DNA of 64,000 bases from Dehalococcoidia bacterium (GCA_965215735.1 CBDCEF010000002.1:394161-458160); one strand, 5' to 3'; shown: positions 16,182 through 57,959, counted from the stretch's first letter. The notes: a model not told the origin generated them from the letters alone. Made by a program: numbers and translations.

Positions 16182-16349
16182 TTGAACACCAAAGCAAGAC
16201 CGGAAGACGACAGCGAGCCGATCTTCTGCGACGACTGTGGACTGGAAAAGATGGCCGAGGTCCGCGACGGCAAGCTCGTCATCGTCGACAGGCGACACGG
16301 CCGCCAGCACGTCGCGATCGTGGAAGTAATCAGAAAAAAGAAGAAGTAG
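16182..16349 (+). CDS. small hypothetical phage-module protein
   Basis: A 55-aa ORF lies between the terminase and portal genes. GGGGAGG sits 5 nt upstream of the TTG at 16182, and an alternative ATG lies at 16161. Confidence 0.3.
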   Translation: MNTKARPEDDSEPIFCDDCGLEKMAEVRDGKLVIVDRRHGRQHVAIVEVIRKKKK

Positions 16350-16359
16350 GAGAGACGAT

Positions 16360-17577
16360 ATGCTCGACAGGATAGCAAAGTGGATAGAGAGTGTGGACTT
16401 GCTGTTCCCGGCATTCCTGTACCTGAAGATCCAACGCCTCCAGATGCGCCAGGACGGTGGCACCTCCACCGGGCCGCCGATCAACGGCCTGACAGACGCA
16501 GACGACTGGGCGCCAAGCCACTACGCCGCCTACTTCGCGACGTCGGCTCCGGTGTACTCGGCCGTTCGGCTGCGCGCCGACTCGGTCGCGAGGCCTCCAC
16601 TCAGGGTGTATCGTCATATCGCGGCGGCGGGCGTTCCGCACAGGGAGTGGGTCGGTCCCGAGCATCCTGCACAGAGGCTGCTGGACCGTGTGAACCCGCA
16701 CTGGACAGGCGGCGACCTCTGGCGGGCGACCGAGACCTATCTGAACCTATGGGGCGTCGCCTACTGGTCGGTCGAGCGCGATGAGCTGGGAATGCCGGCA
16801 GAGCTGTGGCCGCTGCGCCCGGACCGTGTCCGGATCGTGCCCGACGAGAACGAGTACATTCGCGGCTACCTCTACACCGGACTCTCGGGTGAGCAGACCG
16901 CGTTCGCATCGGACGAGATCGTGCGTCTCCGGTACTTCAACCCGCTGGACGAATACGCGGGGCTGTCCCCTATCGCTCCGGTGCGGCTGACGCTCGATAT
17001 GGGCCGCGATGCTCTGCTCAGCAACAAGTCGGGACTCGCCAACGACGGCTCGCCCGGTGTTGTGATACATACCGATGCCAACCCCAGCGAAGACGAAGTC
17101 AAGCGTCTGCTCGAAGACTGGGAATCGCGGTTCAGCGGCCCCCTGAACCGGCTCCGCCCGGCGGTGCTCAGCGCAGGGATGAAGGCGTCGAAGATGGGCT
17201 TCTCCCCGAAGGACATGGAGTATATCCGCACGCTGCGCTGGACCGTCGAAGAGGTGGCGCGGGTGTTCAACGTGCCCAAGCCGCTGCTGCACGACCTGGA
17301 GCGCGCGACCTACTCCAACATCGAGACTGCCCGCCGGATGTTCTGGGAGACCTGTGTCGTGCCGGAGCTGCGCTTCTTCGAGGAGAAGCTCACCGAGAAC
17401 CTGCTGCCCATGTTCGGGGAAGGCTCCCTCACGGCCGAGTTCGACACGTCCAGCATAGAGGCGCTGCGAGAGTCCGAGTCCGAGCGCGCCAGGCGCATCC
17501 ATATCTACGTCTCCGAGGGAATCATGACCCCCGACGAGGCCAGAGCCGAGCTCGGCCTGGGAGTAGCGAGTCAATGA
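16360..17577 (+). CDS. phage portal protein (HK97 family type)
   Basis: AGGAGAG RBS is present. Typical portal blocks are seen: YFNPLDEYAGLSPI, GSPGVVI, KMGFSPKDMEY. The size of about 400 aa and the position after the terminase also fit. Confidence 0.85.
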   Translation: MLDRIAKWIESVDLLFPAFLYLKIQRLQMRQDGGTSTGPPINGLTDADDWAPSHYAAYFATSAPVYSAVRLRADSVARPPLRVYRHIAAAGVPHREWVGPEHPAQRLLDRVNPHWTGGDLWRATETYLNLWGVAYWSVERDELGMPAELWPLRPDRVRIVPDENEYIRGYLYTGLSGEQTAFASDEIVRLRYFNPLDEYAGLSPIAPVRLTLDMGRDALLSNKSGLANDGSPGVVIHTDANPSEDEVKRLLEDWESRFSGPLNRLRPAVLSAGMKASKMGFSPKDMEYIRTLRWTVEEVARVFNVPKPLLHDLERATYSNIETARRMFWETCVVPELRFFEEKLTENLLPMFGEGSLTAEFDTSSIEALRESESERARRIHIYVSEGIMTPDEARAELGLGVASQ

Positions 17578-19720: not shown

Positions 19721-21022
19721 CTATCCGCTGGGGTCCAGCACCCGACCCACGAACAGGATGGTGCCCGTCTCACCGTCCCGTATCAGGAATATGAATGGCC
19801 TGTCCACAGTGACCTCAACAGGTGGCCCTGGTGCTCCGCTGACGGGGATAGCGATCACCGCGGTAGCTGCTGCGGCCTCGGTCCCCTCTTCATCCACCGC
19901 CACGAATGCTTTGTGAATGACGTCTGAGAGCACCAGGCATGAAACGTTCCCAGCCATGCAAGACTGGCCATCCATGCCTGAAAAGTCGGCTCTTGAGATG
20001 TCGAAGGCGTTAGCCATACCCATGGCCCTGAGCGTATCGACGAGGTCGAACGTCGACTCGAACTCAAACTTTGGCATCGTCAGCACGACAGCCCTGGTTT
20101 CGATGTCCTCAAGAGTGCGTCCCACGAGCGCGTTGTCCAACGAGGCCTCAAACGCTTCGAAGGTTCCCGAGTCTGGAAGCAGAATGGTCATGGACATCTT
20201 GCCGAACTTGTACTGCAGGTCGACAGCCTGGTACCCGTTCCCGCTGGCGTATCCGATTTTGCCTGTTCGCTTCATCATATGCACGGCGACCGCGTTTCCC
20301 GTGAGCGGATGGAAGTCGGTGGGCGTTGGCATTTCCTTAAAGCGACGCAGCCACGCCGCATTGAAGTAGATGGCATTGGTAAGCACCAGCGCCGGCGGGT
20401 CCCTCTCGAACTTCTCCGGCGGAACCAGATCTACGATCCTACCCTCTGTCTCGTTGGCCACCCAGTCGTTGATTCTGAGACGCGACTCCTCGGGTTGCCC
20501 CACGAAGTCAGTCGGCGTCACACCCGCTCCGTAGTTCTCCCCGACCACGGTGGTGAACTCATCTAGGAATTGATAGTCCTGCCTACCCCACAGCGCATTT
20601 GCGATGTTCAGCCGGAATGCAGCGGGATCTTTGTCCTTCTTTCCGCCACTGCGAGAGTCTAGGTCAAGGTACAGAGTGTTGAACGCGGGATGAAGTGTGT
20701 CCTGCGGAAGGAGGAAGTGGAGCGTATCGGCCATCTGTCGCTCCGTCTCGCCGCTCGCACCGGCGTATGTCATTCCCATAGCCATTGAGATGCTGTATGG
20801 AGAGTAGAACAGGTTCCCGTCGTCGCCTGCACTAAGCGTCCGGTAGAGGTCAAACGCAAGGACGTTGTTACCGCGCACCAGATCGTTTACCTCCTCGTCG
20901 GTGGCTGACGGCCCGGCCCTATCGGGCAACACAGCATTACCGCACGCAGAGGCGACAATTGAAAGCAGGCACAGCAGACTCGCCATTGCTGTCTCCCAGC
21001 AGATCAGGCCACGATGCGTCAT
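19721..21022 (-). CDS. serpin-family serine protease inhibitor, probable lipoprotein
   Basis: Blocks present: FYSPYSISMAMGMTYAGASGET and NAIYFNAAW. The reactive-centre-loop hinge is EEGTEAAAATAV, followed by DRPFIFLIRD. The lipobox-like LSIVASAC is present. An alternative start (MASLL) lies at 20986. Confidence 0.9.
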   Translation of the reverse strand: MTHRGLICWETAMASLLCLLSIVASACGNAVLPDRAGPSATDEEVNDLVRGNNVLAFDLYRTLSAGDDGNLFYSPYSISMAMGMTYAGASGETERQMADTLHFLLPQDTLHPAFNTLYLDLDSRSGGKKDKDPAAFRLNIANALWGRQDYQFLDEFTTVVGENYGAGVTPTDFVGQPEESRLRINDWVANETEGRIVDLVPPEKFERDPPALVLTNAIYFNAAWLRRFKEMPTPTDFHPLTGNAVAVHMMKRTGKIGYASGNGYQAVDLQYKFGKMSMTILLPDSGTFEAFEASLDNALVGRTLEDIETRAVVLTMPKFEFESTFDLVDTLRAMGMANAFDISRADFSGMDGQSCMAGNVSCLVLSDVIHKAFVAVDEEGTEAAAATAVIAIPVSGAPGPPVEVTVDRPFIFLIRDGETGTILFVGRVLDPSG

Positions 21023-24199: not shown

Positions 24200-25832
24200 T
24201 GTTATTGCTCAGCATAAATGTCCTGACTAACTGACCAGCATAAATGTCACAGTCACCTCATGGAGAATGTGACATTGAACCAGAAAGAGCAGGCAAGACT
24301 TCAGATCCTCAACAGCCTACTGTCGGAGCATATGACGGTGGACCAGGCGGCCACGCTGATGGGAGTGAGCACACGCCACACCAGGCGGATTCTTGCGGCT
24401 TACACAGAAGAAGGAGCAGCCGCACTCGCTCACAGCCATCGGGGTCGGAGGGCTCCCAACACAACACCCGATTCGATAAGTGCCGAGGTGTTGCGTCTAG
24501 CTCGAACCACGTACTCAGGAGTCAACCACACTCATCTGAGCGAACTGCTGAGAGAACGTGATGGCATAGACATAGCCCGTAACACGTTGCGACGCATACT
24601 GGTTGGAGCCGGGGTGAACAGTCCTCGCCGCCGTCGTCCTCCGAAGCACCGTGTTCGTCGGCAACGTATGCCCCGAGAGGGGATGCTGATACAGATCGAT
24701 GGCAGCTATCACCGGTGGCTCGGAGAGGATGGACCTCAGTTCATGCTTCTGCTTGCCGTGGACGACGCCACGGGCAAAGTGGTCAGTGCGCTGTTCTGTG
24801 AGTACGAGAACACCCGAGACTATCTCGTGCTGATGCGGGGACTGATCGAGCGCCACGGGGTACCCATAGCGCTGTACACCGACCGCCACTCGGTCTTCAA
24901 GCACGTACCGGGAACCGGAGCACCGAGCGCTCCAACCCAGTTCTCCCGTGCGATGGACGAGCTCGGAATACAGATGATCTACGCGTTGTCTCCGCAGGCC
25001 AAGGGTCGTGTGGAACGAGCGGCAGGGACCTTCCAGGACAGACTTGTAACGGAGCTTCGACTCGCGGGTGCTACCACCATCGAAGATGCTGGTGTCGTTC
25101 TGAGAGACTTCCTTCCTCACTTCAACGAGCGCTTCGGGGTATCGGCTCCGGAGTCTGAAGTCGCCTACCGTCCTGTGGACAAAGAGAAGTGTCTGGATAG
25201 AGTCCTGTGCTTCAGGCACAGTCGCAAAGTGGCAAAGGACAACACTGTGAGATACCGACGGAGTACGCTTCAGCTGCTGCCCGGCATGGAACGTCCGACC
25301 TACGCTGGAGTGAAGGTGGATGTGCTTGAGGGACTGGACAGTCAACTGATCGTTGAGCACGAGGGTCAACTCATCCCCAGCCAGGAGGCTCCACCCCGTC
25401 CGAACATCCTGCGCGGTGTGAATGGATACCCTTCACACGCACCGCCGTATCGTAACGGTCTGGGCAGCCGCTGGGAGAGAGTTCTGGCCTCACTCGACAG
25501 GGAGAGAGCCGAAGCAATCGACGGCAACCACGACAATGGTGCAGCCAGGATCCGCAAGAAGGCAACCTCTGTACCGAGGAAGCCCACTCCGAAGCAGATC
25601 GCCAGGTGGGAGGCGGTTCACGCAGCGAAGCGCAGGGGCCTGTCCATCAGGGCAATAACCAGGGAGACGGGGGTCCACAGGGAAACCGTACGGAAGTACC
25701 TTAAGACCGACAGTCCGCCGATGAATCGTCCTCGGGTGATGTCCAAAGCATCGTAGTCTGTTACAGTCGCAAAGTTAGACAGGTGACATTTATGCTGGTC
25801 TCTTACCCGGACATTTATGCTGGTCTTCGACA
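24200..25832 (+). mobile_element. ISNCY-like insertion sequence, copy A (1633 bp)
   Basis: The ends are TGTTATTGCTCAGCATAAATG...CATTTATGCTGGTCTTCGACA, and each end carries two CAGCATAAATGTC boxes. The boundaries were defined by comparison with copy B. No flanking target duplication is seen (CTGTTCA versus ATATCTT). Confidence 0.8.
24260..25756 (+). CDS. rve-type DDE transposase with N- and C-terminal HTH (ISNCY-like)
   Basis: The N-terminus reads NQKEQARLQILNSLLSEHMTVDQAATLMGVSTRHTRRIL..GAAALAH.HRGR. DDE candidates are IQIDGSYH, LYTDRHSVF and GRVERAAGTFQDRL. A nearly identical protein lies at 48981-50477. Confidence 0.85.
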   Translation: MENVTLNQKEQARLQILNSLLSEHMTVDQAATLMGVSTRHTRRILAAYTEEGAAALAHSHRGRRAPNTTPDSISAEVLRLARTTYSGVNHTHLSELLRERDGIDIARNTLRRILVGAGVNSPRRRRPPKHRVRRQRMPREGMLIQIDGSYHRWLGEDGPQFMLLLAVDDATGKVVSALFCEYENTRDYLVLMRGLIERHGVPIALYTDRHSVFKHVPGTGAPSAPTQFSRAMDELGIQMIYALSPQAKGRVERAAGTFQDRLVTELRLAGATTIEDAGVVLRDFLPHFNERFGVSAPESEVAYRPVDKEKCLDRVLCFRHSRKVAKDNTVRYRRSTLQLLPGMERPTYAGVKVDVLEGLDSQLIVEHEGQLIPSQEAPPRPNILRGVNGYPSHAPPYRNGLGSRWERVLASLDRERAEAIDGNHDNGAARIRKKATSVPRKPTPKQIARWEAVHAAKRRGLSIRAITRETGVHRETVRKYLKTDSPPMNRPRVMSKAS

Positions 25833-25974
25833 ATATCTTTGAATCATTAACGGTCCCGCAAACTGCCCTTCCTGATTTACCGAACGTCCTCACATAGTAT
25901 GAAAACGAGGCGATTAGCACGAACTATCAGATGACCTCCCTCATAGGAGGGATACTGTTGCCCATGCGAGCAGC

Positions 25975-34045: not shown

Positions 34046-35561
34046 GTAATTGATTAGCGGTAGTGGTTGGTGAGATTGCAGTCGGCAGGTCATGTTCTTA
34101 TACTTCGGCCATGTGTACCGACAAAGACCGCCCTCCCTGTGAACACGACGACCTGGTCGGCAAGGTCGACCGCTTGCAAGGCCAGGTCGCGCGTCTGACG
34201 ACGACGATCAAGGAGCTTCGCAAGCAACTCGCCGCAGCGCAGCGAGCGGGCAAGCGCCAGGCAGCGCCATTCTCCAAGGGCGAGCGGACCTCAAAGCCAA
34301 GGCGTCCGGGTCGAAAGCCCGGGAAGGGGAACTTCAGCTACAGAAAGCCGCCCGCGGTGGACGAGCTGACAGCACCGCCTGTTGACGTTTCGGTTTCGGA
34401 GGAAAGCTGCCCCGGATGTGGAGGCATACTCGAACATGAGGGAGAGAGCCTTGCGTACGTGACCGACATTCCCCCGATGCCCAGACCGCAGGTGACAGAG
34501 TACCGGGTGCAGGTATGCCGATGCGTGTCGTGCGGCAGGCGTGTGCGAGGGCGTCATCGGGACGTTGGACCTGACCAGTACGGTGCGAGCGCCCATCGGG
34601 TGGGAAGACGAGTGATGGCTGCGGCTCACATGCTGCACTACGGAGTGGGCATACCGGTTCGTAGGGTACCGACGGTACTCAGAGCGCTGACCGGTGTGGA
34701 GTTGAGCCAGAGCGCGATCACCCAGGACGCACTGCGCCGTGCACGGGGCGCTGTGGGAGATGGGTACCGTAGGCTTCGGGAGTCTGTGCGTGAGAGCGCG
34801 GTGGTGCACACCGACGACACGGGCTGGCGAGTGGGAGGAGAGTCTGCGTTCCTGATGGCGTTCGAGACCGATGACGCCACGGTGTACCAGGTGCGCGGTC
34901 GTCACCGTAACGAGGAGGTCAGGGAGGTTGTACCTGCCGACTATGCGGGAGTGATGGTGACGGATCGAGCGCGGAGCTACGATGCTCAGGCTCTGTCGGG
35001 AGTGAGACAGCAGAAGTGTCTGGCGCATGTGCTGCGCTCGATCAGCGAGGTTATCGAGACCAAGGTGGGCCGTGGTCGCAGCTTCGGAAAGCGACTGAGC
35101 GAGTTGCTCAGAGAGGCGATGGAACTGCGGGAGTCGGAACGTCGTGGAGAGGTGGCGGACTATGGTGGGGAGACGGAGCGGTTGAGACGAGAGGTGAGCC
35201 ACCATCTGCGGGACCGTCCGCTGTCTGATCGTGACAACTGGAGGCTTCAGAACGAGCTTGGCTGGCAGGATGACCGTGGGAACCTGCTGCGCTTTCTGGA
35301 CGATGGTGGGATAGAGCCGACTAACAACCGGGCGGAGCGGGCGCTGCGCGGTGCGGTGATAGCGCGTAAGGTGTCACACTGCTCCAGGAATGAGGCTGGT
35401 GCGGATGCGTTCAGTGCGTTCACCAGTGTGATCAGGACCCTGGCTCGGCACGGTGGGGGTCAGTCGACGGTGGACGGTCTGTGTGGTGTGTTCAGCGGCG
35501 CGCCTGTCCACACCCGCTCCATCTGAACCTCCTCCCCCCTCTGACTCCGCTAATCAATTAC
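34046..35561 (+). mobile_element. IS66-family insertion sequence (single-ORF type)
   Basis: Perfect 15-bp terminal inverted repeats are present: GTAATTGATTAGCGG (34046-34060) and CCGCTAATCAATTAC (35547-35561). The flanking 8-bp duplication is CCCCTGCG / CCCCTGAG (7 of 8 match). Confidence 0.85.
34111..35526 (+). CDS. IS66-family transposase
   Basis: The leucine-zipper N-terminus, zinc ribbon CPGCGG...CRCVSCGRR, HTDDTGWRV and IEPTNNRAERALRGAVIARKVS are all present. The start is taken at MCTDKD because the 5' fragment at 63352 begins the same way. Confidence 0.88.
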   Translation: MCTDKDRPPCEHDDLVGKVDRLQGQVARLTTTIKELRKQLAAAQRAGKRQAAPFSKGERTSKPRRPGRKPGKGNFSYRKPPAVDELTAPPVDVSVSEESCPGCGGILEHEGESLAYVTDIPPMPRPQVTEYRVQVCRCVSCGRRVRGRHRDVGPDQYGASAHRVGRRVMAAAHMLHYGVGIPVRRVPTVLRALTGVELSQSAITQDALRRARGAVGDGYRRLRESVRESAVVHTDDTGWRVGGESAFLMAFETDDATVYQVRGRHRNEEVREVVPADYAGVMVTDRARSYDAQALSGVRQQKCLAHVLRSISEVIETKVGRGRSFGKRLSELLREAMELRESERRGEVADYGGETERLRREVSHHLRDRPLSDRDNWRLQNELGWQDDRGNLLRFLDDGGIEPTNNRAERALRGAVIARKVSHCSRNEAGADAFSAFTSVIRTLARHGGGQSTVDGLCGVFSGAPVHTRSI

Positions 35562-36373
35562 CCCCTGAGGGCAAGCAGATAAGGCGAGCATGGAGAGAAA
35601 AGAATCCTCACAAGGTCTTAGCCAAGCGTGAACGCCAAAGGCAAAAGCATCGAGAGAAGACAGGTTACAACCCGGAAGGTCGAACCTGCGAGGATTGCAA
35701 TGCTGATATATCTCACAGGGGACATAACGCCAAATGGTGCGTTCCTTGTTCGACACCTCCTGCTAGGACGTGCATAGTATGCCATACCGACATTTCGAAC
35801 AGAGGGGTCAGAGCACAATTCTGTAGTGAGGACTGCAAGCAACATCAGCAGCAGTCGAAGGAGTTGGTTGGGTACACCAAGACATGTACCAAGTGCAACG
35901 AGAACAAAGATCACAATGAATTCGGACTTCACTACAATCTCAGGCGCTCAGTCTGCAAAAGTTGCGAAGTTAAGGACCAGTCAGAACGGTACCACAACTT
36001 CACTCCTGAACAGAGGGCAAGAAGGCGTCGCCTTCGACGCAAGCGTGAGCGAATCAAAAGGACCAGTCTGTCCCCAACGGAAAGGGCAGTGCTGAGAACC
36101 AACGTCCGCCAAGTTCGCAGACGGAAGCTATATGGGCCTGGCTTCGATGAGGATAGATTGTATTCAGAGCAAGAGGGCAAGTGTGCTGTCTGCGAAACTC
36201 CTAAGTCGCTGGAAGAGCTGGAACTCGACCATGACCACGCGACAGGAAGGCTGCGGGGATTCCTGTGTAAGAATTGTAACTTCAAGCTGCTGCCTCGCTA
36301 CGAGAAGTTTCCACACCGACACCAAGATTCGCCGCTTTTGAATGCATACCTGTTAAAAGGCAAACGGCAATGA
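35562..36373 (+). pseudogene. 3' part of the IS66-interrupted zinc-ribbon / recombination endonuclease VII gene
   Basis: Two more C.DC..DISHRG..A.WC.PCS modules are followed by the EndoVII core GKCAVCETPKSLEELELDHDHATGRLRGFLCKNCNFKL. Confidence 0.7.
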
Positions 36374-40135: not shown

Positions 40136-40921
40136 ATGGTCACGCCACACCTCAAACAGGATGTCAGACACACTGATACTGACACCGTCCACTACCCCAT
40201 AGACGATGACGAACCCTTGGCCGAATCCGAATACCAGCTCTTCCCGCTCACCTATGCGCACGCGGCGCTGAGGTCGTGGTTCGAGGACAATCCGACCGTC
40301 TGGGTCGGAGCGGACATGTTCCTCTACTACGAAGAAGGCGTCCCATCGAGTGTGGTCGCGCCCGATGTGTTCGTGGTCACTCAGACTCACAAGAGATATC
40401 TGCGAAACATCTTCCAGACGTGGGTCGAGGGCCGGGTGCCTGAACTGGTTTTGGAGATCATGTCACCCTCGTCGGTACACCGTGACACGGTGACGAAGTT
40501 CGAGTTGTACGAGCGCCTGAGTGTACGGGAATACTGGATTTACGACCCGACAGAGGAGGGCGTTCTTGAGCCCCGACTGCGGGGGAACGTGCTCGTGGGA
40601 GGTGAGTACCGCCCGATAGAGATGCGTGAGGTGGATGGGAAGTACGTCGGTGTGAGCGACGTATTGGGCCTCGAGTTCCACGCCAATGCTGAGTGGTTCC
40701 GGTTCTTCAACCCTATCTCAGGCGAGTACCTACCCGACTACCAGGAGAATCAACAAGCGCAGGTGGAAGCCGAGACTCTGGCCCGCACGGAGCAAGCCGC
40801 CAGAGAAGCCGCCGAGGCACAAGCCGAACAGGAGCGAGCCGCAAGAGAAGCAGCCGAGGCGCGGCTGGCGGCAATGGAGGCTGAGCTCCGACGGCTGCGT
40901 GGTCAACAGAGACCGAGCTAG
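40136..40921 (+). CDS. Uma2-family endonuclease, paralog 4
   Basis: It is very similar to paralog 1: YPIDDDEPLAESEYQLFPLTYAHAAL, VPELVLEIMS, REYWIYDPTEEG. The tail ends in AELRRLRGQ. Confidence 0.88.
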   Translation: MVTPHLKQDVRHTDTDTVHYPIDDDEPLAESEYQLFPLTYAHAALRSWFEDNPTVWVGADMFLYYEEGVPSSVVAPDVFVVTQTHKRYLRNIFQTWVEGRVPELVLEIMSPSSVHRDTVTKFELYERLSVREYWIYDPTEEGVLEPRLRGNVLVGGEYRPIEMREVDGKYVGVSDVLGLEFHANAEWFRFFNPISGEYLPDYQENQQAQVEAETLARTEQAAREAAEAQAEQERAAREAAEARLAAMEAELRRLRGQQRPS

Positions 40922-48389: not shown

Positions 48390-48905
48390 ATGTACCAGGT
48401 GGAACTGTATCTTCGCGTCCGACGAGCCTGCATGGTAGACGGCATGAGCACCAGGGAAGCGTCCCGGGTGTTCGGTCTGCACAGAGACACCGTTCGCAAG
48501 ATGCTCGCGTACTCGGTACCGCCGGGATACCGAAGACGACAACCTCCCAGAAGACCCAAGATCGGTCCATACACCGGGGTCATAGACCGGATACTCGAGG
48601 ATGACCTCGGCCTTCCCAGGAAGCAGCGCCACACCGCCAAACGCATCTACGAGCGTCTGAGGGACGAGTACGGCTTCGACGGCAGGTACACGATCGTCAA
48701 GGACTACGTCCGAGAGCACCGCCGCCGGACACGTGAGATGTTCGTGCCTCTATCGCATCCGCCCGGACACGCGCAGTGCGACTTCGGAGAGGCATTGGCT
48801 GTCATAGGCGGAGTGAAGCGGAAGAGCCTGCCCCTGGCGGAAGCAGGGGTCCACTTCTTCGTCCTGGACCTGCCCCACAGCGACGCGATGTTCGTCAGGG
48901 CATAC
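48390..48905 (+). pseudogene. istA: IS21 transposase IstA, 5' part (interrupted)
   Basis: The HTH N-terminus MSTREASRVFGLHRDTVRKML is followed by KQRHTAKRIYERLRDEYGF and PGHAQCDFGEA. The gene is cut after ..MFVRAY by the insertion at 48906. Confidence 0.85.
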
Positions 48906-50537
48906 TGTCGAAGACCAGCATAAATGTCCGCCTAACTGACCAGGGAAAATGTCACCTGTCTAACTTGCGACTGTAACAGACTACGATGCTTTCAACATCA
49001 CCCGAGGACGATTCATCGGCGGACTGTCGGTCTTAAGGTACCTCCGTACGGTGTTCCTGTGGATGCCCGTCTCCCTGGTTATTGCCCTGATGGACAGGCC
49101 CCTGCGCTTCGCTGAGTGAACCGCCTCCCACCTGGCGATCTGCTTCGGAGTGGGCTTCCTCGGTACAGAGGTTGCCTTCTTGCGGATCCTGGCGGCACCA
49201 CTGTCGTGGTTGCCGTCGATTGCTTCGGCTCTCTCCCTGTCGAGTGAGGCCAGAACTCTCTCCCAGCGGCTGCCCAGACCGTTACGATACGGCGGTGCGT
49301 GTGAAGGGTATCCATTCACACCGCGCAGGATGTTCGGACGGGGTGGAGCCTCCTGGCTGGGGATGAGTTGACCCTCGTGCTCAACGACCAGTTGACCGTC
49401 CAGTCCCTCAAGCACGTCCACCTTCACTCCAGCGTAGGTCGGACGTTCCATCCCGGGCAGCAGCTGAAGCGTACTCCGTCGGTATCTCACAGTGTTGTCC
49501 TTTGCCACTTTGCGACTGTGCCTGAAGCACAGCATCCGATCCAGACACGTCCCTCCGTCCACAGTGCGGTAGGCGACTTCAGGCTCCGGAGCCGATACCC
49601 CGAAGCGCTCGTTGAAGTGAGGAAGGAAGTCTCTCAGAACGACACCGGCATCTTCGATGGTGGTCGCACCCGCGAGTCGAAGCTCGGTTACAAGTCTGTC
49701 CTGGAAGGTCCCTGCCGCTCGTTCCACACGGCCCTTGGCCTGTGGAGACAGCGCGTAGATCATCTGTATTCCGAGCTCGTCCATCGCACGGGAGAACTGG
49801 GTTGGAGCGCTCGGTAGTCCACTCCCCGGTACATGCTTGAAGACCGAGTGGCGGTCGGTGTACAGCGCGATGGGTACCCCGTGGCGCTCGATCAGTCCCC
49901 GCATCAGCACGAAGTAGTCTCGGGTGTTCTCGTACTCACAGAACAGCGCGCTGACCACTTTGCCCGTGGCGTCGTCCACGGCAAGCAGAAACATAAACTG
50001 AGGTCCATCCTCTCCGAGCCACCGATGATAGCTGCCATCGATCTGTATCAGCATCCCCTCTCGGGGCATGCGTTGCCGACGAACACGGTGTTTCGGAGGA
50101 CGTCGGCGACGAGGACTGAGAAGACCGGCTCCAACCAGTATGCGTCGCAACGTGTTACGGGCTATGTCTATACCATCACGTTCTCTCAGCAGTTCGCTCA
50201 GATGAGTGTGGTTGACTCCTGAGTACGTGGTTCGAGCTAGACGCAACACTTCGGTCTTTATCGAATCGGGTGTTGTGTTGGGAGCCCTCCGACCCCGATG
50301 GCCGTGAGCGAGTGCGGCTGCTCCTTCTTCTGTGTAAGCCGCAAGAATGCGCCTGGTGTGGCGTGTGCTCACTCCCATCAGCGTGGCCGCCTGGTCCACC
50401 GTCATATGCTCGGTCAGTAGGCTGTTGAGGATCTGAAGTCTTGCCTGCTCTTTCTGGTTCAATGTCACATTCTCCATGAGGTGACTGTGACATTTATGCT
50501 GGTCAGTTAGTCAGGACATTTATGCTGAGCTATAACA
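48906..50537 (-). mobile_element. ISNCY-like insertion sequence, copy B (1632 bp), nested in istA
   Basis: It has the same ends as copy A. A perfect 7-bp target duplication GGCATAC lies at 48899-48905 and 50538-50544. Excision restores ..FVRAYPAETTEAFCDGHVSAFSF.. Confidence 0.9.
48981..50477 (-). CDS. rve-type DDE transposase (ISNCY-like), copy B
   Basis: A 498-aa protein that is near-identical to the protein at 24260-25756. Confidence 0.88.
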   Translation of the reverse strand: MENVTLNQKEQARLQILNSLLTEHMTVDQAATLMGVSTRHTRRILAAYTEEGAAALAHGHRGRRAPNTTPDSIKTEVLRLARTTYSGVNHTHLSELLRERDGIDIARNTLRRILVGAGLLSPRRRRPPKHRVRRQRMPREGMLIQIDGSYHRWLGEDGPQFMFLLAVDDATGKVVSALFCEYENTRDYFVLMRGLIERHGVPIALYTDRHSVFKHVPGSGLPSAPTQFSRAMDELGIQMIYALSPQAKGRVERAAGTFQDRLVTELRLAGATTIEDAGVVLRDFLPHFNERFGVSAPEPEVAYRTVDGGTCLDRMLCFRHSRKVAKDNTVRYRRSTLQLLPGMERPTYAGVKVDVLEGLDGQLVVEHEGQLIPSQEAPPRPNILRGVNGYPSHAPPYRNGLGSRWERVLASLDRERAEAIDGNHDSGAARIRKKATSVPRKPTPKQIARWEAVHSAKRRGLSIRAITRETGIHRNTVRRYLKTDSPPMNRPRVMLKAS

Positions 50538-51552
50538 GGCATACCCCGCCGAGACCACAGAGGCGTTCTGCGACGGACATGTGTCGGCGTTCTCGTTCCT
50601 GGGAGGGGTTCCACAGAGCATCGTGTACGACAACACCCGTCTGGCAGTTGCGAGGATACTGGGAGACGGTCGTCGCCGACGCACACGCGTGTTCACAGAG
50701 CTGCAGTCGCACTACCTGTTCGAGGACAGGTTCGGACGTCCCGGCAAGGGCAACGACAAGGGGAAGGTGGAGGGTATGGTCGGATACACCAGGAGGAACT
50801 TCCTGGTGCCCATACCCTCGTTCGAGAGCTTCGAGGCCCTCAACGCCCACCTCGAGGAGCGATGCCTGGATCGGATGGAGGCGAAGCTCAGGGGACATAC
50901 AGAGACGATAGACGAGCGCATGGTGCGTGATCTCGACGCACTTCTGCCGCTGCCGGCAGTGCCGTATGACCCGAGCGACAGGCACCTGACCCGTGTGAGC
51001 TCGCTGTCGCTGGTCCGCTACCGCACCAACGACTACTCGGTGCCTGTCGCATACGGACACAGGGATGTACTGGTCAGAGGCTATGTCGACGAGGTGGTCG
51101 TCAGTTGCGGGACGGACGTGATCGCCCGTCACCGTCGCTCCTACGAGCGGGACGACTTCGTGTTCGATCCCATCCACTACCTGCCTCTGTTGGAGCGGAA
51201 GACCGGTGCGCTGGACCAGGCGGCGCCACTTGCCGGATGGGACCTCCCCGAGGAGTTCGGTACCCTGCGCCGGCTGCTGGAGTCTCGGATGGGCAGACGA
51301 GGCAAGAGGGAGTTCGTGCAGGTGCTCAGACTCATGGAGACGTTCAGTATCGATGAGGTCCACCAGGCGGTGCGGGACGCGATCAGACTGGGAGCGCTGA
51401 GCTTCGACGCGGTCAAGCACCTCGTGCTGTGCGGCATCGAGGGCCGACCGCCAAGACTGGACCTGGAGCTGTATCCATACCTGCCCAGGGTGAGCGTGAG
51501 CACAACATCGACGACAGACTACATGACGCTTCTGTCAGGGAGGGCATCGTGA
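50538..51552 (+). pseudogene. istA: IS21 transposase IstA, 3' part
   Basis: It reads AETTEAFCDGHVSAFSFLGGVPQSIVYDNTRLAV...GKGNDKGKVEGMVGY and is contiguous with 48390-48905 once the nested IS is removed. Confidence 0.85.
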
Positions 51553-52361
51553 GCGACAGACCAACACTGCTGCTGGAACACCACCTCAGGGAGCTCAGGC
51601 TGCCGACCTTCCTCAGGGAGTACGGGAAGATGGCAGCCCAGTGTGCAGAGGAGGGGGTGGACCACCCAGACTACCTGCTCAGGCTGTCCGAACTGGAGCT
51701 CATAGACAGACACCATCGCATGGTCGACCGCAGGATCAAAGCCGCGCGCTTCCCGACGGTCAAGAGCCTCGACACCTTCGACTTCCCTGCGATCCCGTCG
51801 GTGAACAGGCAGTTGGTGACCCAGTTGGCCAGGTGCGAGTACGTGGACCGCAGGGAGAACATCATCGCCATCGGCAACAGCGGCACGGGCAAGACCCACA
51901 TGGCGCTGGGACTGGGACTCGCAGCCTGTCAGAGGGGACTGTCTGTGGGGTTCACCACGGCCGCGGCGCTGGTCAACGAACTGATGGAGGCCAGGGACGA
52001 CAGACGTCTGCTGAACTTCCAGAAGAGGCTGTCCCGTCTGAAGCTGCTGATCATAGACGAGCTGGGCTTCGTTCCCCTGTCGAAGACCGGTGCGGAACTG
52101 CTCTTCGAAGTATTCAGCCAGCGCTACGAGACCGGTGCGGAGCTGCTCTTCGAAGTATTCAGCCAGCGCTACGAGAGGGGCTCGGTGCTTGTGACCACCA
52201 ACCTGCCGTTCGACGAGTGGACCGATGTGTTCGGATCGGAGAGACTGACCGGTGCGTTGCTGGACAGACTGACACACCATGTGCACATCCTGGCGATGAA
52301 CGGTGAGAGCTACCGTCTGAAGCAGAGCAGACAGACCGCCAACATGCCGTCCTCGGACTGA
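51549..52361 (+). CDS. istB: IS21 helper ATPase IstB with an internal 15-aa tandem duplication
   Basis: LRLPTFLREYGKMA, Walker A GNSGTGKTHMA and Walker B LLIIDELGF are present. The 45-nt unit ACCGGTGCGGA(A/G)CTGCTCTTCGAAGTATTCAGCCAGCGCTACGAG occurs twice (52086-52130 and 52131-52175). The GTG start overlaps the istA stop. Confidence 0.85.
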   Translation: MSDRPTLLLEHHLRELRLPTFLREYGKMAAQCAEEGVDHPDYLLRLSELELIDRHHRMVDRRIKAARFPTVKSLDTFDFPAIPSVNRQLVTQLARCEYVDRRENIIAIGNSGTGKTHMALGLGLAACQRGLSVGFTTAAALVNELMEARDDRRLLNFQKRLSRLKLLIIDELGFVPLSKTGAELLFEVFSQRYETGAELLFEVFSQRYERGSVLVTTNLPFDEWTDVFGSERLTGALLDRLTHHVHILAMNGESYRLKQSRQTANMPSSD

Positions 52362-52676
52362 CCTCCGACCTCAGTCCCAGTTCACTCGGAGCGGACATTA
52401 TTGCTGACCACCTGCGACTCCAGTGGTACACTTTCCCGCCGCCCCAGTGGTCTGTTATCCGCCCGCCCTTGACAGTTTGTGTTTCCAAAACCATTATCCT
52501 AGATGCACAGGAGCACTTTCTTACCCCTTCAGCACACCGCTACACTCATCTTTTCGGTGGATTGGGGCTAAGCCAGAAGGGCAGGTACTGGGTACCGCTC
52601 AACTTACACCGCCCGTGACATGAGGCCATTCGCGCGGGACCTCGGATACAAATTGGAGCTGTTCATCTATGGGTAG

Positions 52677-52793
52677 GAAGATCGCCGATACCTTCGCGTC
52701 CGTGTGGACGCGTTCTACTTCAACAACCTTTGCGGCCTGAGCCGAGAGGAGGCTGGCTACATGCTCGGCACTTTCGTTATAGTCCGCCGATAG
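52677..52793 (+). pseudogene. C-terminal remnant of a large restriction-modification/methyltransferase-type gene
   Basis: It encodes EDRRYLRVRVDAFYFNNLCGLSREEAGYMLGTFVIVRR*. From memory this resembles the conserved C-terminus (LDAa.fhLYGLsRdev.YiLdtFpIvkr) of large type IIG-like enzymes. A stop lies immediately upstream. Confidence 0.3.
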
Positions 52794-52969
52794 GATGAGG
52801 AAGGATTTAGGCGCTAGCTAATTAATGAGGGTGCTGGTGTGTACATGAGCGCGCTGCCCGAAGTAACGGTCGAGGAGAGGCTGTGAGTGTAGCTGACCAC
52901 GCAGCAGGATCTGAGCTGTTCAGCATGCATGAGACACTTGCGATATGCTAGGCCGCGAGGTAAAAGGTT

Positions 52970-53971
52970 ATGGCCAGCGGAAAGATACTGAGGAAGCTGA
53001 TAGGGTCCGGTGCGGAAGGTGATACGGACGCTTTTCGTTGCGCCGCCAAACAGATGGTTGCTGAGGAACGCCAAAAGCAACACCACCTCTTGGCAGACGA
53101 TCTAGAAGCGATCCTCACCGGCCGTACAGGGTTACCTCCACGTTCTAAACTACGGCGCGCAATTGCTGGGGTCCCAGAGGACCGTGAGCGAGGGCTATCC
53201 CTGCTATCAGTTCGAGAGCCTACCCGCGACTTGGCGGATATCGTGCTGTCACCCTCAAATACGTCCATTGTTAAGGAACTGCTCCGAGAGCACAATCGAG
53301 GTGACGTCCTTAAAGCCCACGGCCTCAGTCCCAGCAGTCGAATTCTCTTGTGCGGCCCGCCAGGTTGCGGTAAGTCCCTGACTGCTGAGATTTTCGCCAG
53401 CGAACTCGGTCGCCCACTAGCTACAGTGCGTATGGAAAGCATTGTGTCCTCTTATTTGGGAGAGACGGCGTCCAACATTCGGAAAGTCTTCGACTTCGCT
53501 GCTGACTCTCCCATGATCGTATTGTTCGACGAGTTTGATGCATTGGGAAAAGAGCGAGTGGATGCTTTTGAGCATGGCGAGTTGCGTCGCGTTGTTAACG
53601 CAATCCTGCAGATGTTAGACGAGTATAACGGGCAAAGTATTATCATAGCTGCCACTAATCACGAGGGAATGCTGGACTCGGCAGTGTGGCGGCGGTTTGA
53701 GGAGGTTCTCTTTCTCAAGCCACCAACACGGGCCCAGATTTGTAGCCTGCTAAATGTGAAACTGCGGGGCACACGCCAGGACTTCGATCTCAGAGAACTA
53801 GCTTCCAGAGAGTGGTTCAGAGGAGCAACGCACGCAGATGTAGAGCGTTTAGTACAAAGGGCGGTTAAGGAGATGGTTCTAGAGGGTGGTGATATGACCT
53901 TGCGTATCGAACATCTGGAGTTGGCGCATCGACGTGAAAAGGCCAGAAAACTCCGTGCGACCGGGCGGTGA
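52970..53971 (+). CDS. AAA+ ATPase (classic CDC48/FtsH-clade AAA module), IetA-like
   Basis: Walker A is LLCGPPGCGKSLTAE and Walker B is IVLFDEFDALG. The sensor-1 region is IIIAATNHEGMLD and the arginine-finger region is DSAVWRRFE. At 333 aa, its stop overlaps the start of the next ORF. Confidence 0.85.
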   Translation: MASGKILRKLIGSGAEGDTDAFRCAAKQMVAEERQKQHHLLADDLEAILTGRTGLPPRSKLRRAIAGVPEDRERGLSLLSVREPTRDLADIVLSPSNTSIVKELLREHNRGDVLKAHGLSPSSRILLCGPPGCGKSLTAEIFASELGRPLATVRMESIVSSYLGETASNIRKVFDFAADSPMIVLFDEFDALGKERVDAFEHGELRRVVNAILQMLDEYNGQSIIIAATNHEGMLDSAVWRRFEEVLFLKPPTRAQICSLLNVKLRGTRQDFDLRELASREWFRGATHADVERLVQRAVKEMVLEGGDMTLRIEHLELAHRREKARKLRATGR

Positions 53972-54696
53972 TGGTTAGCAGACGGGACAACACGTACCCC
54001 CACTTGCAGTTGAGACGTGAGGAGCCTTTCCTCCGGCGTCGCCCCGGCGGTGGCCGCCGTCCTCGTATCCCGCCACCGAACGACCCCAATGCGCACGGTG
54101 TTAGGCTCAGAGAACGCCTGCAAGCAGCCCGTGAGGCCTCTGGTCAATCTATAGGAGGTTTCGACGAGCGGCTCCTCATGAAAATCGAAATGCGCGATTA
54201 CGTTTCACCGGAAGCGATATCCAGTGCCTCAAGCGGTGTGGAAATCGTGAGCCAAGAAGAGGACAATTTAGTCTTGGCCTTTGCTACTGCAGCGCAACTG
54301 GAGACCTTCGAGGCGCGCCTCAGCGACCTTGCGGATGGACAACCGGTGACCTACGCCAACGTTATCTACGCCATGCAGGACTTCGACCAGTGGACGCGGG
54401 AGGACCGAACTGGCTGGGCTTTGCGACGAGATGGGTTCCCTGACCATGAGCGCTTTATCATCGACGTCGAGCTATGGCCCCTAAATCAGGATGAAGCAAT
54501 CGGCCAGCAGCGCCATACGTTTGAGGATTGGCTGCAGGCAAATGATGGCGAGACCATCGATTCTGTGAAGCGAGCCTACCTCACTATTTATCGGGTTCGG
54601 TGTTCCCGACAACTGGCAGAGGATTTATTGCGCTATCGTGACGTACGATTGCGCTATCCGTACGAACCGTCGATTTGCCGCCCCGTATTGGACTAG
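53968..54696 (+). CDS. N-terminal (non-catalytic) segment of the subtilase gene, separated by a frameshift; alternatively an independent 242-aa gene
   Basis: The start (GTG at 53968 or ATG at 53971) overlaps the ATPase stop. Frame A ends ..LLRYRDVRLRYPYEPSICRPVLD*. Deleting the 17-nt repeat at 54649-54665 fuses it in frame to 54675-56366. Confidence 0.6.
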   Translation: MMVSRRDNTYPHLQLRREEPFLRRRPGGGRRPRIPPPNDPNAHGVRLRERLQAAREASGQSIGGFDERLLMKIEMRDYVSPEAISSASSGVEIVSQEEDNLVLAFATAAQLETFEARLSDLADGQPVTYANVIYAMQDFDQWTREDRTGWALRRDGFPDHERFIIDVELWPLNQDEAIGQQRHTFEDWLQANDGETIDSVKRAYLTIYRVRCSRQLAEDLLRYRDVRLRYPYEPSICRPVLD

Positions 54697-56366
54697 ATCT
54701 GCAGATCCCATTAACCAGTGTGCAACAGTTGAACTCTACACCAGATCCTCCGGACGATGTCCCTGGAGTCGTCGTACTTGATTCCGGCCTAATTGGGGGA
54801 CACCCTCTTATCGCGCCCGCCGTGGGGGATGCTCAGAGCTTCATTGCTGGCAAGGGAGCAGCAGATGAACACGGACACGGCACGGCGGTTTCTGGGCTCG
54901 CTCTGTACGATGACATTGCGGACTGCATACGCAACAGAAGTTTCGTACCTGAGTTAAGGCTTTTCAGTGGGCGCATTTTGGATCATCAGAATGCAGGCGA
55001 TCCACCGCTGATCCACAACCAGGTTGATTCTGCAGTTCGCTACTTCGTGGACCATTACGATTGCCGCGTGTTCAATCTCTGCTACGGGGATCTAAACAAG
55101 CCATACCAAGGAGGGCGCGTCGCTGGTCTCGCTGTCACATTGGATGCCCTGGAGCGAGAGCTCGATGTTTTATTCGTTGTTCCCACAGGAAATTACAGTG
55201 CCGTGGACGATGGACGACCGGACTGGCGGACAGACTACCCCCACTATCTGAAATCAGATACGGCTGCCATAATTGACCCCGCGCCAGCGCTGAATGTCCT
55301 GACTGTTGGTAGCCTCGCACGATATGAGCAGGGCACTCCGAGCCAACGCTATCCCAATGATCCTGCTTACATCGCAGTAGCCAAGTCTGATCAGCCTTCG
55401 CCATTTACAAGGTGCGGGCCATCTGTAAGAGGTGCCATCAAGCCAGACTTAGTGGACTATGGTGGAAACATATTAGTCGACTCCCGGAATGGAAACCGCC
55501 GCATGGTAGGCTCGCAAGGTGTGGGTGAAATCACTACCTCACGAGAATTCGCCACAGGACGTCCATTCGTGGAGGAATCTGGCACAAGTTTTGCTGCCCC
55601 TCGGGTTGCAAATGCTGCTGCTCGGCTTTTTTCGGAGCTGCCCAATGCCAGCACTGATCTGTGTCGCGCATTATTGGTCGCGCATGCGCGTGCTCCAATC
55701 GCTTGTGCAGATCTGTACGGAGCTGACACAGACGCACTGCTAAATACAATAGGCTACGGTCTGGTGGATCGCTCGGCACTCTATAGGTCGTTGGACAATT
55801 GTGTGACGCTCTGGGCGGAAGATCGAATAGAAGACCAGCGACACCACTTCTATGAGGTACCGGTCCCCGAGGGATTCTGGGAAGGAGGCAGGCGTACCCG
55901 CGAGTTGACTGTATCCTTGGCATATAGACCTGCAGTCCGGACTACTCGGATTGATTACCGGGCATGCTCTGTAAAGTTTAAGCTGGTTCAAGCGAACTCC
56001 CTAGACCAGGCTGCGCAGTGGTTCGACGCTGACGTCCAAGTCGCTGAGGACGAGGTGGGAAATGGCAGGGAACGAGGTGCTGGGAGAGGGTTGACCGAAA
56101 CAGCACGGTCTAGGGGTACTGTGCAGGCATCTACTTGGACATTCACGCAACCATCGAGGGTCATTCGCCAGTCATCTTGGTTTGTCGTAGTTACCCGTAA
56201 TGGTCCTGCGTGGGGCGAAAGTATTTCCTTCGAGCGGGAGCCGTATGCCTTAGTTGTTAATCTCTCAGAGCGAGTTGAGCAGCAAACACAGTTATCTGTC
56301 CTTCCGCTCTATTCGCAGATGCGGGCCTTGCTACAGGGTAGAGCACGAGGGTCGATCAGGATTTGA
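54675..56366 (+). CDS. subtilase (peptidase S8) domain protein, IetS-like; lacks an ATG start
   Basis: The catalytic triad occurs in D-H-S order: VVVLDSG, EHGHGTAVSG and ESGTSFAAPRVANAAARL. Only a TTG lies at 54675, and the frame is open from 54642. A C-terminal domain of about 200 aa follows the protease. Confidence 0.8.
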   Translation: MPPRIGLDLQIPLTSVQQLNSTPDPPDDVPGVVVLDSGLIGGHPLIAPAVGDAQSFIAGKGAADEHGHGTAVSGLALYDDIADCIRNRSFVPELRLFSGRILDHQNAGDPPLIHNQVDSAVRYFVDHYDCRVFNLCYGDLNKPYQGGRVAGLAVTLDALERELDVLFVVPTGNYSAVDDGRPDWRTDYPHYLKSDTAAIIDPAPALNVLTVGSLARYEQGTPSQRYPNDPAYIAVAKSDQPSPFTRCGPSVRGAIKPDLVDYGGNILVDSRNGNRRMVGSQGVGEITTSREFATGRPFVEESGTSFAAPRVANAAARLFSELPNASTDLCRALLVAHARAPIACADLYGADTDALLNTIGYGLVDRSALYRSLDNCVTLWAEDRIEDQRHHFYEVPVPEGFWEGGRRTRELTVSLAYRPAVRTTRIDYRACSVKFKLVQANSLDQAAQWFDADVQVAEDEVGNGRERGAGRGLTETARSRGTVQASTWTFTQPSRVIRQSSWFVVVTRNGPAWGESISFEREPYALVVNLSERVEQQTQLSVLPLYSQMRALLQGRARGSIRI

Positions 56367-56487
56367 TACGAAGGTGCGGCATTCAGCCCCTGGCGCCTCC
56401 GCAATCGTGTTTGAGATGGGACATCGTTCACAGTGAGTGAAACTAAATCCACGACCTCGGGGGACAGTCGTGGGACTGTGTTCCTGT

Positions 56488-56525
56488 CACCGCCACAGCG
56501 GCCTGTTTTTCGCCCGCCCTTGACA
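56488..56525 (+). repeat. solo copy of the IS21 right-end terminal repeat
   Basis: CACCGCCACAGCGGCCTGTTTTTCGCCCGCCCTTGACA compares with CCGCCGCCCCAGTGGTCTGTTATCCGCCCGCCCTTGACA at 52437-52474, in the same orientation. Confidence 0.7.
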
Positions 56526-56552
56526 GGGTCTCAGACGACGGTGACGCTCACC

Positions 56553-56827
56553 ATGAACAACTCCGAGGCTAGCCATGTCATCAAGCTCGGTGGGGTGACC
56601 GACGCGGAAGACCCAGCGCACACCTATGCCGTGACGGAGAGGGAGAAGGAGATACTCACACAGTTCGCAAGGGGCATGTCCTACTCTGCCATCGCCGAGG
56701 CCAGAGGCAACAAGCCGGCGACTGTCCGCAACACCATCTTTGCCATACAGACAAGCTGGGATCAGACTCGAAGCAGGAGGTCGTCGTCTGGGCCGTGCAA
56801 AACGGCCTGCTGGATCGATCGGACTAA
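56553..56827 (+). pseudogene. small LuxR-type HTH regulator with a 1-nt frameshift
   Basis: ..TEREKEILTQFARGMSYSAIAEARGNKPATVRNTIFAIQ is in frame 0. The expected continuation DKLGSDSKQEVVVWAVQNGLLDRSD* is in frame +1 from about 56750. Confidence 0.6.
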
Positions 56828-56980
56828 GGCGACTTCGTTCATAACTCCTCGGCCTCGACATTCACCGATCCCATTGAGCGGAGTGATGTTAGTCCACATC
56901 TCCCCTCTTTTCATTCGCACTCTATTAGTTATGTCAAGCTAGACGAGCCAGAGAGGCTGAAAGCGAGCTGGCGGACGCGC

Positions 56981-57685
56981 CTAGCCCAGCTCCTCCAGAC
57001 GTGCCCTGAGCCTGCGCACCTCAGCCTCGGCATCCCGTCGAGCTTTGGCTTCCGCCTCCGCACGAGCGGTCTCCTCCCGGTGGCTGAGCAGATAGCTCTC
57101 GGTCACGGAGTCGAAGAACCGCAGGCTCCCGTGCTCCCAGCACACGTGAAGCCCCAGCGTCTCGCTGTAACCGCGCCAGACTCCATCGCCGAGCTGCTCC
57201 ACCTCCAGCGGCTCGTACACACCGTCAACCAGACGGTCGCCGGCGAGCGCGGCATCATAGTGGTCGCCGCCGCTCGGATCGAAGCGCCAGTACTCGGGTA
57301 TCCCGTAGCGCGCATAGTCCAGGCGCTTGTCCGTGTAGTCGGTCACCCCCGTCGTCGGCGAGGCAACCTCAAGGACGAAGTCCGGCGGCCTTTCCATCAG
57401 CGCCAGCGCATAGCCGCGACGCTCCTCGATCAATTCGCGGTCGCAGTCGAACGCCACCAGCAGGTCGGGTATCCGGATGTCGTCACGGTCGGACAGGTCG
57501 GGGCCTACGGGCACCTCGCTGGCCACGACGGTGTTGGGCAGCTCCGTGAAGTAGACCGACAGCGCTGTCAGGACGGCGGAGTCGTAGAGGTGGAGCCAGT
57601 TCTGCATATCGTCCCGGGGCGTGAAGACGGGGAATCGGGCGATCCCGTCAGCTTCCTGCATGAGAGTGGTCGTCTTGCTGGTCAT
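56981..57685 (-). CDS. Uma2-family endonuclease, paralog 5
   Basis: Blocks present: IPDLLVAFD, PPDFVLEVASPTT, PEYWRFDPSGG. The tail ends in RRLRARLEELG. The start is taken at MTSKTTT. Confidence 0.85.
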   Translation of the reverse strand: MTSKTTTLMQEADGIARFPVFTPRDDMQNWLHLYDSAVLTALSVYFTELPNTVVASEVPVGPDLSDRDDIRIPDLLVAFDCDRELIEERRGYALALMERPPDFVLEVASPTTGVTDYTDKRLDYARYGIPEYWRFDPSGGDHYDAALAGDRLVDGVYEPLEVEQLGDGVWRGYSETLGLHVCWEHGSLRFFDSVTESYLLSHREETARAEAEAKARRDAEAEVRRLRARLEELG

Positions 57686-57959
57686 CGCGGACCTCGGGTG
57701 CCTCGTGGGCCAACTGGTGACAGTATACCACTGGGGTCTCGGGTGCCTGGAACTCATAGAGGATGGGCTGGGTGGGCGTCTCTACATTGTCCTGGCGGAC
57801 CGCGGCTCGACAGAGCGGACGATTCCCAGGGGTCGTGGTATTGCGGGTGGGCCGGTCTGTAAACAGGTTCTCCACGCCGCTCCCTGTGCGTCGGTTTCCG
57901 CGCCGGGCAGATTGCGGTCCTCGACGGCCTTGTCCGGCGTGAGTGGACTCCGGGGGGGT

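Follow-up and report, generated by a model that had tools for sequence, protein, structure and literature searches.

An ietA gene is followed by an ietS gene in two frames

We analyzed a 64-kb stretch of DNA from a Dehalococcoidia bacterium (here called the window, with positions counted from its first nucleotide), which carries at 52970-56366 an ietA gene, encoding an AAA+ ATPase, and an ietS gene, encoding a subtilase, that is interrupted by 17 bp. IetAS was initially characterized as a plasmid-stabilizing toxin–antitoxin pair, composed of a serine protease toxin and an ATPase antitoxin (PMC13069673). In the account given there, which cites Gao et al. 2020 for the later step, the founding pair is that of the pTiC58-type Ti plasmids and ietAS subsequently became known as an anti-phage system. 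Three open reading frames (ORFs) lie on the plus strand of the cassette, at 52970-53971 (333 aa, ietA), 53968-54696 (242 aa, ORF2) and 54675-56366 (563 aa, ORF3). An earlier note on this DNA had proposed an IetAS-like defence cassette, possibly a three-ORF variant in which the N-terminal protein of ~240 aa is separate from the protease. Judged from sequence comparisons, the locus is instead very probably a horizontally acquired, chromosomal IetAS module, of the toxin–antitoxin type that acts by abortive infection, whose ietS gene has been inactivated by the 17-bp insertion.

The ietA gene (52970-53971) is intact and encodes a 333-aa AAA+ ATPase of the classic clade, the published antitoxin component. 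The protein matches the Pfam AAA family (PF00004) with an E value of 1.5e-31 and the PADLOC IetA profile PDLC02196 with an E value of 5.4e-92 (307 bits, residues 4 to 310); three further PADLOC IetA models match at E ≤ 3e-56, and the best NCBIfam match is IteA_antiphage (E = 1.6e-68). It carries the motifs that the earlier note had listed, namely a Walker A motif (GPPGCGKS, 53354-53377), a Walker B motif (FDEFD, 53525-53539) and an arginine finger (WRRF), as well as a Tyr-Leu-Gly pore loop (SSYLGE) and a sensor-1 motif (ATNH), all of which are conserved at levels of at least 90 to 98% among 81 homologs. The nearest solved structures are the D2 domains of p97/Cdc48, which are of the unfoldase type; no solved structure of IetA or IetS was found by sequence. 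The exact IetA sequence of the window is present on 19 contigs. The overlap of the ATPase stop with the next start, also described in the earlier note, was confirmed: the ietA stop codon TGA (53969-53971) overlaps the ATG of ietS (53971-53973), and a GTG at 53968 completes the sequence GTGATG at 53968-53973.

ORF2 matches positions 3 to 221 of the PADLOC IetS profile PDLC02198 (E = 6e-49, 165 bits) and ORF3 matches positions 224 to 784 of its 795 positions (E = 9e-190, 630 bits). Because the two ORFs match consecutive parts of one profile, they constitute one gene in two frames, and together with the ietA match these profile searches place the pair in the IetAS family, as had been suggested. 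NCBIfam IteS is the top match for the ietS product. The 5′ part of ietS (53971-54641, plus strand, within ORF2) encodes a disordered N terminus and two predicted tandem ferredoxin-like α/β domains, and the 3′ part (54659-56366, plus strand, within ORF3), which is out of frame with it, encodes an S8 subtilase and a C-terminal β-sandwich of ~190 aa. ORF3 matches Pfam Peptidase_S8 (PF00082) with an E value of 6.9e-34, and its D/H/S triad is intact, as the earlier note had recognized. Specifically, the columns of D265 (54780), H297 (54876), the oxyanion residue N402 (55191) and S534 (55587) are invariant in 60 homologs.

ietS is very probably inactivated by a 17-bp insertion

The two parts of ietS are separated by the 17-bp plus-strand sequence CGTACGATTGCGCTATC at 54642-54658 (an equivalent placement is 54649-54665), which puts the rest of the gene in the −1 frame, where a stop codon follows at 54694-54696, 16 codons past the insertion. 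The site corresponds to codon 226/227, exactly at the junction where the invariant RDVRTVDLPPR sequence joins the N-terminal domains to the protease domain. The inserted sequence is composed of a copy of TTGCGCTATC (10 bp) and a copy of CGTACGA (7 bp), both taken from the preceding 21 bp. When the 17 bp were deleted in silico, a single open frame of 793 codons resulted, reading ...LLRYRDVRTVDLPPRIGLDL... The repaired protein has more than 2000 homologs at E ≤ 1e-10, with lengths of ~780 to 793 aa, and its database match, P0001, is an intact IetS of 792 aa that differs from it at three residues.

Sister contigs of the same species, in which the cassette is at least 99.9% identical, were recovered by look-up of the exact IetA protein and of the downstream 169-aa ORF; the exact protein of the downstream Uma2-family gene, used as an anchor, had no match on record. 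Contig L081, the same-species contig that encodes P0001, is 99.8% identical and differs from window positions 52421-57695 by nine substitutions and one gap, the gap being the 17 bp at 54642-54658. The 17 bp are likewise absent from L082-L085, L087-L092, L094 and L095, and indeed every recovered sister contig lacks them. An intact ietS is present in seven sister contigs, namely all five short-read scaffolds and two of the contigs from long reads. The intact same-species protein contains the Pfam domains Y4kK_N, Y4kK_2nd and Peptidase_S8. The window allele also has two private nonsynonymous changes; one is L20F, and the other, L275I, affects a position where Leu is at least 90% conserved.

The earlier proposal of a three-ORF variant, in which ORF2 and ORF3 would be separate proteins working with IetA, can draw on the location of the break between predicted domains and on a TTG codon that opens ORF3 at 54675. 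However, ORF3 lacks an ATG, nothing resembling a Shine-Dalgarno sequence can be seen ahead of it, and the split, which is allele-specific and absent from at least 11 near-identical contigs, destroys the invariant D229-L230-P231 motif of the junction. In the cross-phylum survey described below, ietS is in a single frame in 54 of the 60 loci that contain it; none of these 54 intact homologs is organized in three ORFs, and the six fragmented ones break at different places. Together with the one IetS profile that spans both ORFs and the single frame that removal of the 17 bp restores, these observations make a functional three-ORF arrangement highly improbable. Since intact alleles of the same species lack the 17 bp, the putative three-ORF variant is a frameshifted ietS pseudogene. 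Programmed frameshifting was considered separately and rejected, as the overlap of ORF2 and ORF3 contains no slippery site of the X XXY YYZ type and the shift is allele-specific. With only a 242-aa N-terminal fragment made in frame, the cassette cannot work, and what is left in the window is an orphan antitoxin gene and a dead toxin gene.

Other ietS lesions in sister contigs

Several sister contigs carry ietS lesions of their own. L082 has an IS66 insertion at codon ~74, L086 an IS5-like insertion at codon ~236 that is flanked by a CTAG target duplication, and L083 and L092 a second 17-bp insertion, unrelated to that of the window, at codon ~418. In L093, ietA is missing together with two-thirds of ietS, from its 5′ end, owing to a deletion associated with an insertion sequence (IS). 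Counting the window allele, there are thus five independent ietS-disrupting events, and ietA is retained in four of the five knock-out alleles, having been lost only in L093. When four sequences were aligned over 14.6 kb, the two indels in ietS were the only ones larger than 1 bp that lay outside IS genes.

The second 17-bp insertion, GGATGGTGATGGAGAAG, lies at positions 5255-5271 of L083 (identical in L092), equivalent to window position 55241, and no local template was found for it. Both of the unrelated ietS insertions are exactly 17 bp long. The IS66 element of L082 is 92% identical to an IS66 copy in the window at 34063-36373 (plus strand).

Four points count against the reading of the locus as an inactivated IetAS module. 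First, the 17-bp insertion occurs in a single assembly, and all short-read contigs are intact. Second, the sister contigs were ascertained in part through the exact IetA protein, so that knock-outs of ietA alone would be missed. Third, neither protein reaches the NCBIfam equivalog cut-offs, IteA scoring 231.5 against a cut-off of 510 bits and IteS 117.8 against 900 bits. Fourth, as a consequence, the presumed function is transferred from relatives that are 29 to 34% identical. By these profile scores, the window pair belongs to a distinct subfamily and is not an equivalog of the NCBI-modelled pair.

If the insertion were an assembly or consensus artefact of the long-read contig, the organism would carry an intact two-gene IetAS. 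The intact allele of the five short-read scaffolds and two long-read contigs would be expected in that case, and it is an odd coincidence that the sole other small ietS insertion is also 17 bp long and also occurs in a long-read assembly. The insertion, however, is no homopolymer error but has an ordered structure in which neighboring motifs of 10 and 7 bp are duplicated, the allele in which it occurs is also set apart by L20F and L275I, and the bona fide IS insertions and the deletion in ietS of sister strains show that loss of the gene occurs in this population. We therefore regard an artefact as unlikely and retain the insertion as a genuine lesion.

ietA and ietS across phyla

We examined the state of the two genes in 80 ietA-anchored loci from a collection of species-representative genomes, which cover many phyla and are mostly metagenome-assembled genomes. 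Enough downstream sequence to judge was available for 70 of these loci. ietS is in a single frame in 54 of them and fragmented or truncated in 6, and the other 10 have an orphan ietA; thus, 16 of the 70 (23%) contain no intact ietS. The reciprocal set consisted of 66 ietS-anchored metagenome loci with an intact ietS and enough upstream sequence. In 65 of them, a full-length ietA lies directly upstream. The sole abnormal ietA, in L101 (2992-4000), ends in a frameshifted tail of ~45 codons and is followed by an intact ietS. With every one of the 66 loci scored as ietA-intact (0 of 66 lacking ietA), the asymmetry gives a Fisher P value of 1.3e-5; scoring L101 as not intact (65/66) raises P to ~1e-4, a value that was estimated and not computed. 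The order of the genes is uniform: ietA comes first and ietS is adjacent and co-oriented in each of the 54 intact loci of the cross-phylum set and in 65 of the 66 anchored on ietS. As indirect, comparative evidence, the asymmetry fits what would be predicted for a pair in which IetS is the toxin and IetA the antitoxin.

Relation to known IetAS systems and genomic neighborhoods

The gene order of the window is that of the pTiC58-type IetAS of Agrobacterium, in which an AAA+ ATPase of ~330 aa is followed by an S8 peptidase of ~800 aa on the same strand and coupled to it. The Ti plasmid (pTi) IetA is 34% identical to the window IetA over 291 aa (E = 3e-53), and the pTi IetS is 29% identical to the window IetS over 446 aa (E = 1e-25), with the alignment spanning the catalytic domain and reaching into the start of the C-terminal one; BLASTP could not align the ~250 aa at the N terminus of IetS. 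In contrast to the pTi pair, the window copy is chromosomal rather than plasmid-borne, and its ietS is frameshifted. The match to the subfamily modelled by PDLC02196 and PDLC02198 (equivalent to Y4kK_N + Y4kK_2nd + Peptidase_S8) is full-length, the sole difference being the 17-bp interruption. The earlier description of the locus as a diverged member of the system holds relative to the founding pTi pair (34%/29% identity); the subfamily, however, is already represented by PADLOC and Pfam models and has thousands of members.

Neighboring genes of the 80 homologous loci were analyzed by clustering and PADLOC annotation. In 41 of the 80 loci, the neighbors include genes of DISARM, of restriction-modification (R-M) systems of type I or type III, of HEC-01A or of PDC-M28B. 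Most of the closest relatives are nested in DISARM class 1 operons of the order drmD-drmMI-ietA-ietS-drmA-drmB, with ietAS between drmMI and drmA. In a second group, the pair is embedded in an operon of type I R-M (hsdM-ietAS-hsdS-hsdR); nested pairs of these kinds are found in L003, L005, L007-L009, L014 and L016-L018, among others. A third group is flanked by a DrmD-like SNF2 helicase on the upstream side and by a type III methylase (Mod) downstream. The last arrangement recalls ietHAS, an ietAS variant that includes the SNF2 helicase IetH, which resembles DrmD (PMC13069673); in the homologous loci L033, L035, L058, L075 and L080, a DrmD-like SNF2 gene lies directly upstream of ietA. In L075 (6924-10987) and L080 (7097-10987), the ietA directly 3′ of the helicase gene is an orphan without ietS, and next to it downstream come a DUF5131-like gene and a gene for a type III methylase. 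This arrangement could represent what is left of ietH-ietA, or another pairing. In E. coli, ietAS co-localizes with type III R-M (10.1101/2022.08.21.504612).

The window cassette differs from these relatives in its surroundings. Unlike in ietHAS, no helicase or drm gene adjoins it and an IS21 remnant lies upstream instead; no trace of drmD, drmMI, drmA or drmB was found within the window flanks of the cassette, and none of the recurrent defence neighbors adjoins it. The clade to which the pair belongs may be an accessory module rather than a stand-alone system, one that normally works from within DISARM class 1 operons or R-M operons of type I/III, where it tends to lie between methylase and nuclease/helicase genes. 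Such nesting suggests a functional link, an example of which would be a back-up abortive-infection arm triggered when restriction is inhibited.

These neighborhoods also bear on whether the pair could be a housekeeping AAA chaperone and maturation protease, akin to EccA and mycosin of the type VII secretion system (T7SS) or of proteasome type. Weak NCBIfam matches point in that direction, the T7SS mycosin model scoring 38.2 bits and EccA 24.8 bits, as do matches to Cdc48/PAN ATPases and the p97/Cdc48 D2 domains that are nearest to IetA among solved structures. The scores, however, are far under the cut-offs of 279 to 800 bits (24.8 against 466 for TIGR03922 and 38.2 against 279 for TIGR03921), and no secretion, ESX or proteasome genes lie nearby. 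Moreover, the defence genes beside 41 of the 80 homologous pairs contrast with the absence of any recurrent housekeeping partner or conserved housekeeping neighbor among these loci, which agrees with the variable-island location anticipated by the earlier note. The gene is also dispensable in nature, and its third-codon-position G+C content (GC3) is foreign. A housekeeping role is thus scarcely credible, and assignment to the IetAS family stands.

Predicted IetS structure and candidate mechanism

An AlphaFold2 (AF2) model of IetS residues 1-226 has a mean predicted local distance difference test (pLDDT) score of 83 and contains two tandem ferredoxin-like α/β domains at residues ~40-230. A Foldseek search of the Protein Data Bank with these N-terminal domains gave no match at E ≤ 1e-3, the best being ACT-like tandem domains at E = 4.5e-3. 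The C-terminal ~190 residues are predicted to form the strands of a β-sandwich (pLDDT 65-85). With the full-length model, Foldseek returned PCSK9 (E = 2.5e-4), Kex2 (E = 1.6e-3) and jelly-roll folds, which are weak matches with template modeling (TM) scores of at most 0.24. The predicted layout of α/β domains, subtilase and β-sandwich is similar to that of the proprotein convertases Kex2 and PCSK9, a structural analogy by which no membership is claimed.

Published work on the family shows that phage defence by IetAS requires protease activity and that ietA mutants could not be constructed; the anti-phage mechanism is said there to "remain unknown" (PMC13069673, April 2026; a recent mechanistic paper could have been missed). 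In the case of a Bacillus homolog, defence takes the form of abortive infection, and the trigger is the SPbeta protein YosG (10.1101/2022.08.27.505566). In an intact system of the window type, a hexamer of IetA might hold or remodel IetS through its Tyr-Leu-Gly pore loops and thereby keep it inactive. IetS would be a zymogen-like protease with a proprotein-convertase-like architecture, and a phage trigger would release it to cleave cellular targets. The full-length AF2 model is poor in the S8 domain (pLDDT < 50; mean pLDDT 56), and the fold matches of the N- and C-terminal domains are weak, for which reasons the zymogen-like model is something that we infer. In the window, the mechanism is moot: since the stop codon, 16 codons past the insertion, falls within the RDVRTVDLPPR linker, no protease is made.

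Composition and borders of the cassette

When G+C content is computed over proper windows, the cassette remains the AT-richer element that the earlier note had described from spot counts. Its G+C content of 54.9%, compared to a window mean of 60.1% (standard deviation of 2.2% for 3.4-kb windows), is lower than that of any other 3.4-kb stretch of the 64 kb, and the IS21 flank is at 61-64%. The GC3 is 0.545 for ietA and 0.51-0.61 for ietS, compared to 0.66-0.94 for 17 other genes of the window. The low GC3 relative to these genes points to recent horizontal acquisition and, as a compositional signature, supports a probable foreign origin of the cassette.

Upstream of ietA is a non-coding leader (52421-52969, plus strand) that travels with the cassette: it is 99.8% co-linear with L081, which begins exactly at the IS21 end. 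No promoter could be demonstrated in the leader, which gave no Pfam or tblastn signal, and in a scan of 52300-57000 the counts of promoters and terminators were not above shuffle expectation. The left border of the island is an IS21 remnant (50581-52420, plus strand) with Pfam Mu-transpos_C_2 and IstB_IS21 matches, consisting of an N-terminally truncated istA plus istB at 50581-52361 and itself interrupted by a 1.6-kb IS (48902-50537). The IS surroundings noted earlier are thus real, and the same IS21 also lies upstream of ietA in the same-species contigs L082-L086. The istB gene of the remnant contains a perfect in-frame 45-bp tandem duplication at 52084-52176 (…TGAELLFEVFSQRYE twice), which is found only in the window and is absent from the sister contigs L092, L094 and L095. 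The ~1.6-kb IS, which encodes a 498-aa transposase rich in helix-turn-helix motifs, is present in two inverted copies that are 96% identical (24200-25836 and 48902-50537) and bracket 23 kb; the right-hand copy is the one that interrupts istA of IS21.

The R-M gene remnant that was thought to adjoin the cassette could not be located. A tblastn search of 1102 neighbor ORFs from the 80 homologous loci against 52300-53000 and 56300-57000 detected no R-M fragment, and neither did six-frame translation of the 550-bp upstream spacer and of the downstream spacer with Pfam at E ≤ 1. The only restriction-labelled neighbor is an intact Uma2 gene (PF05685) at 56981-57757 on the minus strand. It contains a cluster of five single-nucleotide differences from L081 at 57252-57281. 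Uma2-family genes, annotated as putative restriction endonucleases, also occur as paralogs at 40136-40921 (plus strand) and 9658-10410, and the copies form diverged inverted repeats of 77% identity.

Other features of the window

An RNase P RNA of bacterial class A lies at 829-1232 (307 bits), which indicates that the window is chromosomal. It was the sole family to reach its gathering score in an Rfam scan of the window, which contains no tRNAs. The only clear R-M gene of the window, 46 kb from the cassette, encodes a 1114-aa enzyme of type ISP/IIG (6162-9506, minus strand; N6_Mtase, Eco57I and Type_ISP_C). Genes for a phage terminase large subunit and portal protein at 14779-17577 (plus strand) represent a prophage remnant or a cluster resembling a gene-transfer agent. 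The IS66-family transposase at 34063-36373 is followed by a protein with an Endonuclease VII domain, and at 63643 the window has a specific 1-bp insertion (A) relative to three sister contigs, inside the DDE_Tnp_1 transposase gene of an IS. A leucine-rich-repeat protein with a bacterial immunoglobulin domain is encoded on DNA repeats of ~72 bp at 2377-4461 (minus strand), and a serpin is encoded at 19721-21022 (minus strand). The leucine-rich-repeat protein and the serpin, both eukaryote-like, together with the IS load hint at a host-associated lifestyle.

Discussion

As an annotation, the locus carries little weight, being a known defence system that is a pseudogene in the window genome. The analysis makes modest additions to what was known of the subfamily, namely the recurrent loss of ietS, the asymmetry between ietA and ietS, and the nesting in DISARM and R-M operons. 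Decay in which the toxin gene goes first fits the assignment of IetS as toxin and IetA as antitoxin for this subfamily, and the regular nesting suggests cooperation between IetAS and restriction-type systems. A broader reading, which we put forward tentatively and hold to be doubtful as a whole, is that ietS is recurrently selected for loss in an IS-rich, probably host-associated lineage, that the clade is an accessory module of DISARM class 1 and R-M operons, and that the pair of 17-bp insertions reflects a specific repair or mutational process. If ietS were indeed selected for loss, the population would amount to a natural experiment on what a protease toxin costs its carrier through autoimmunity.

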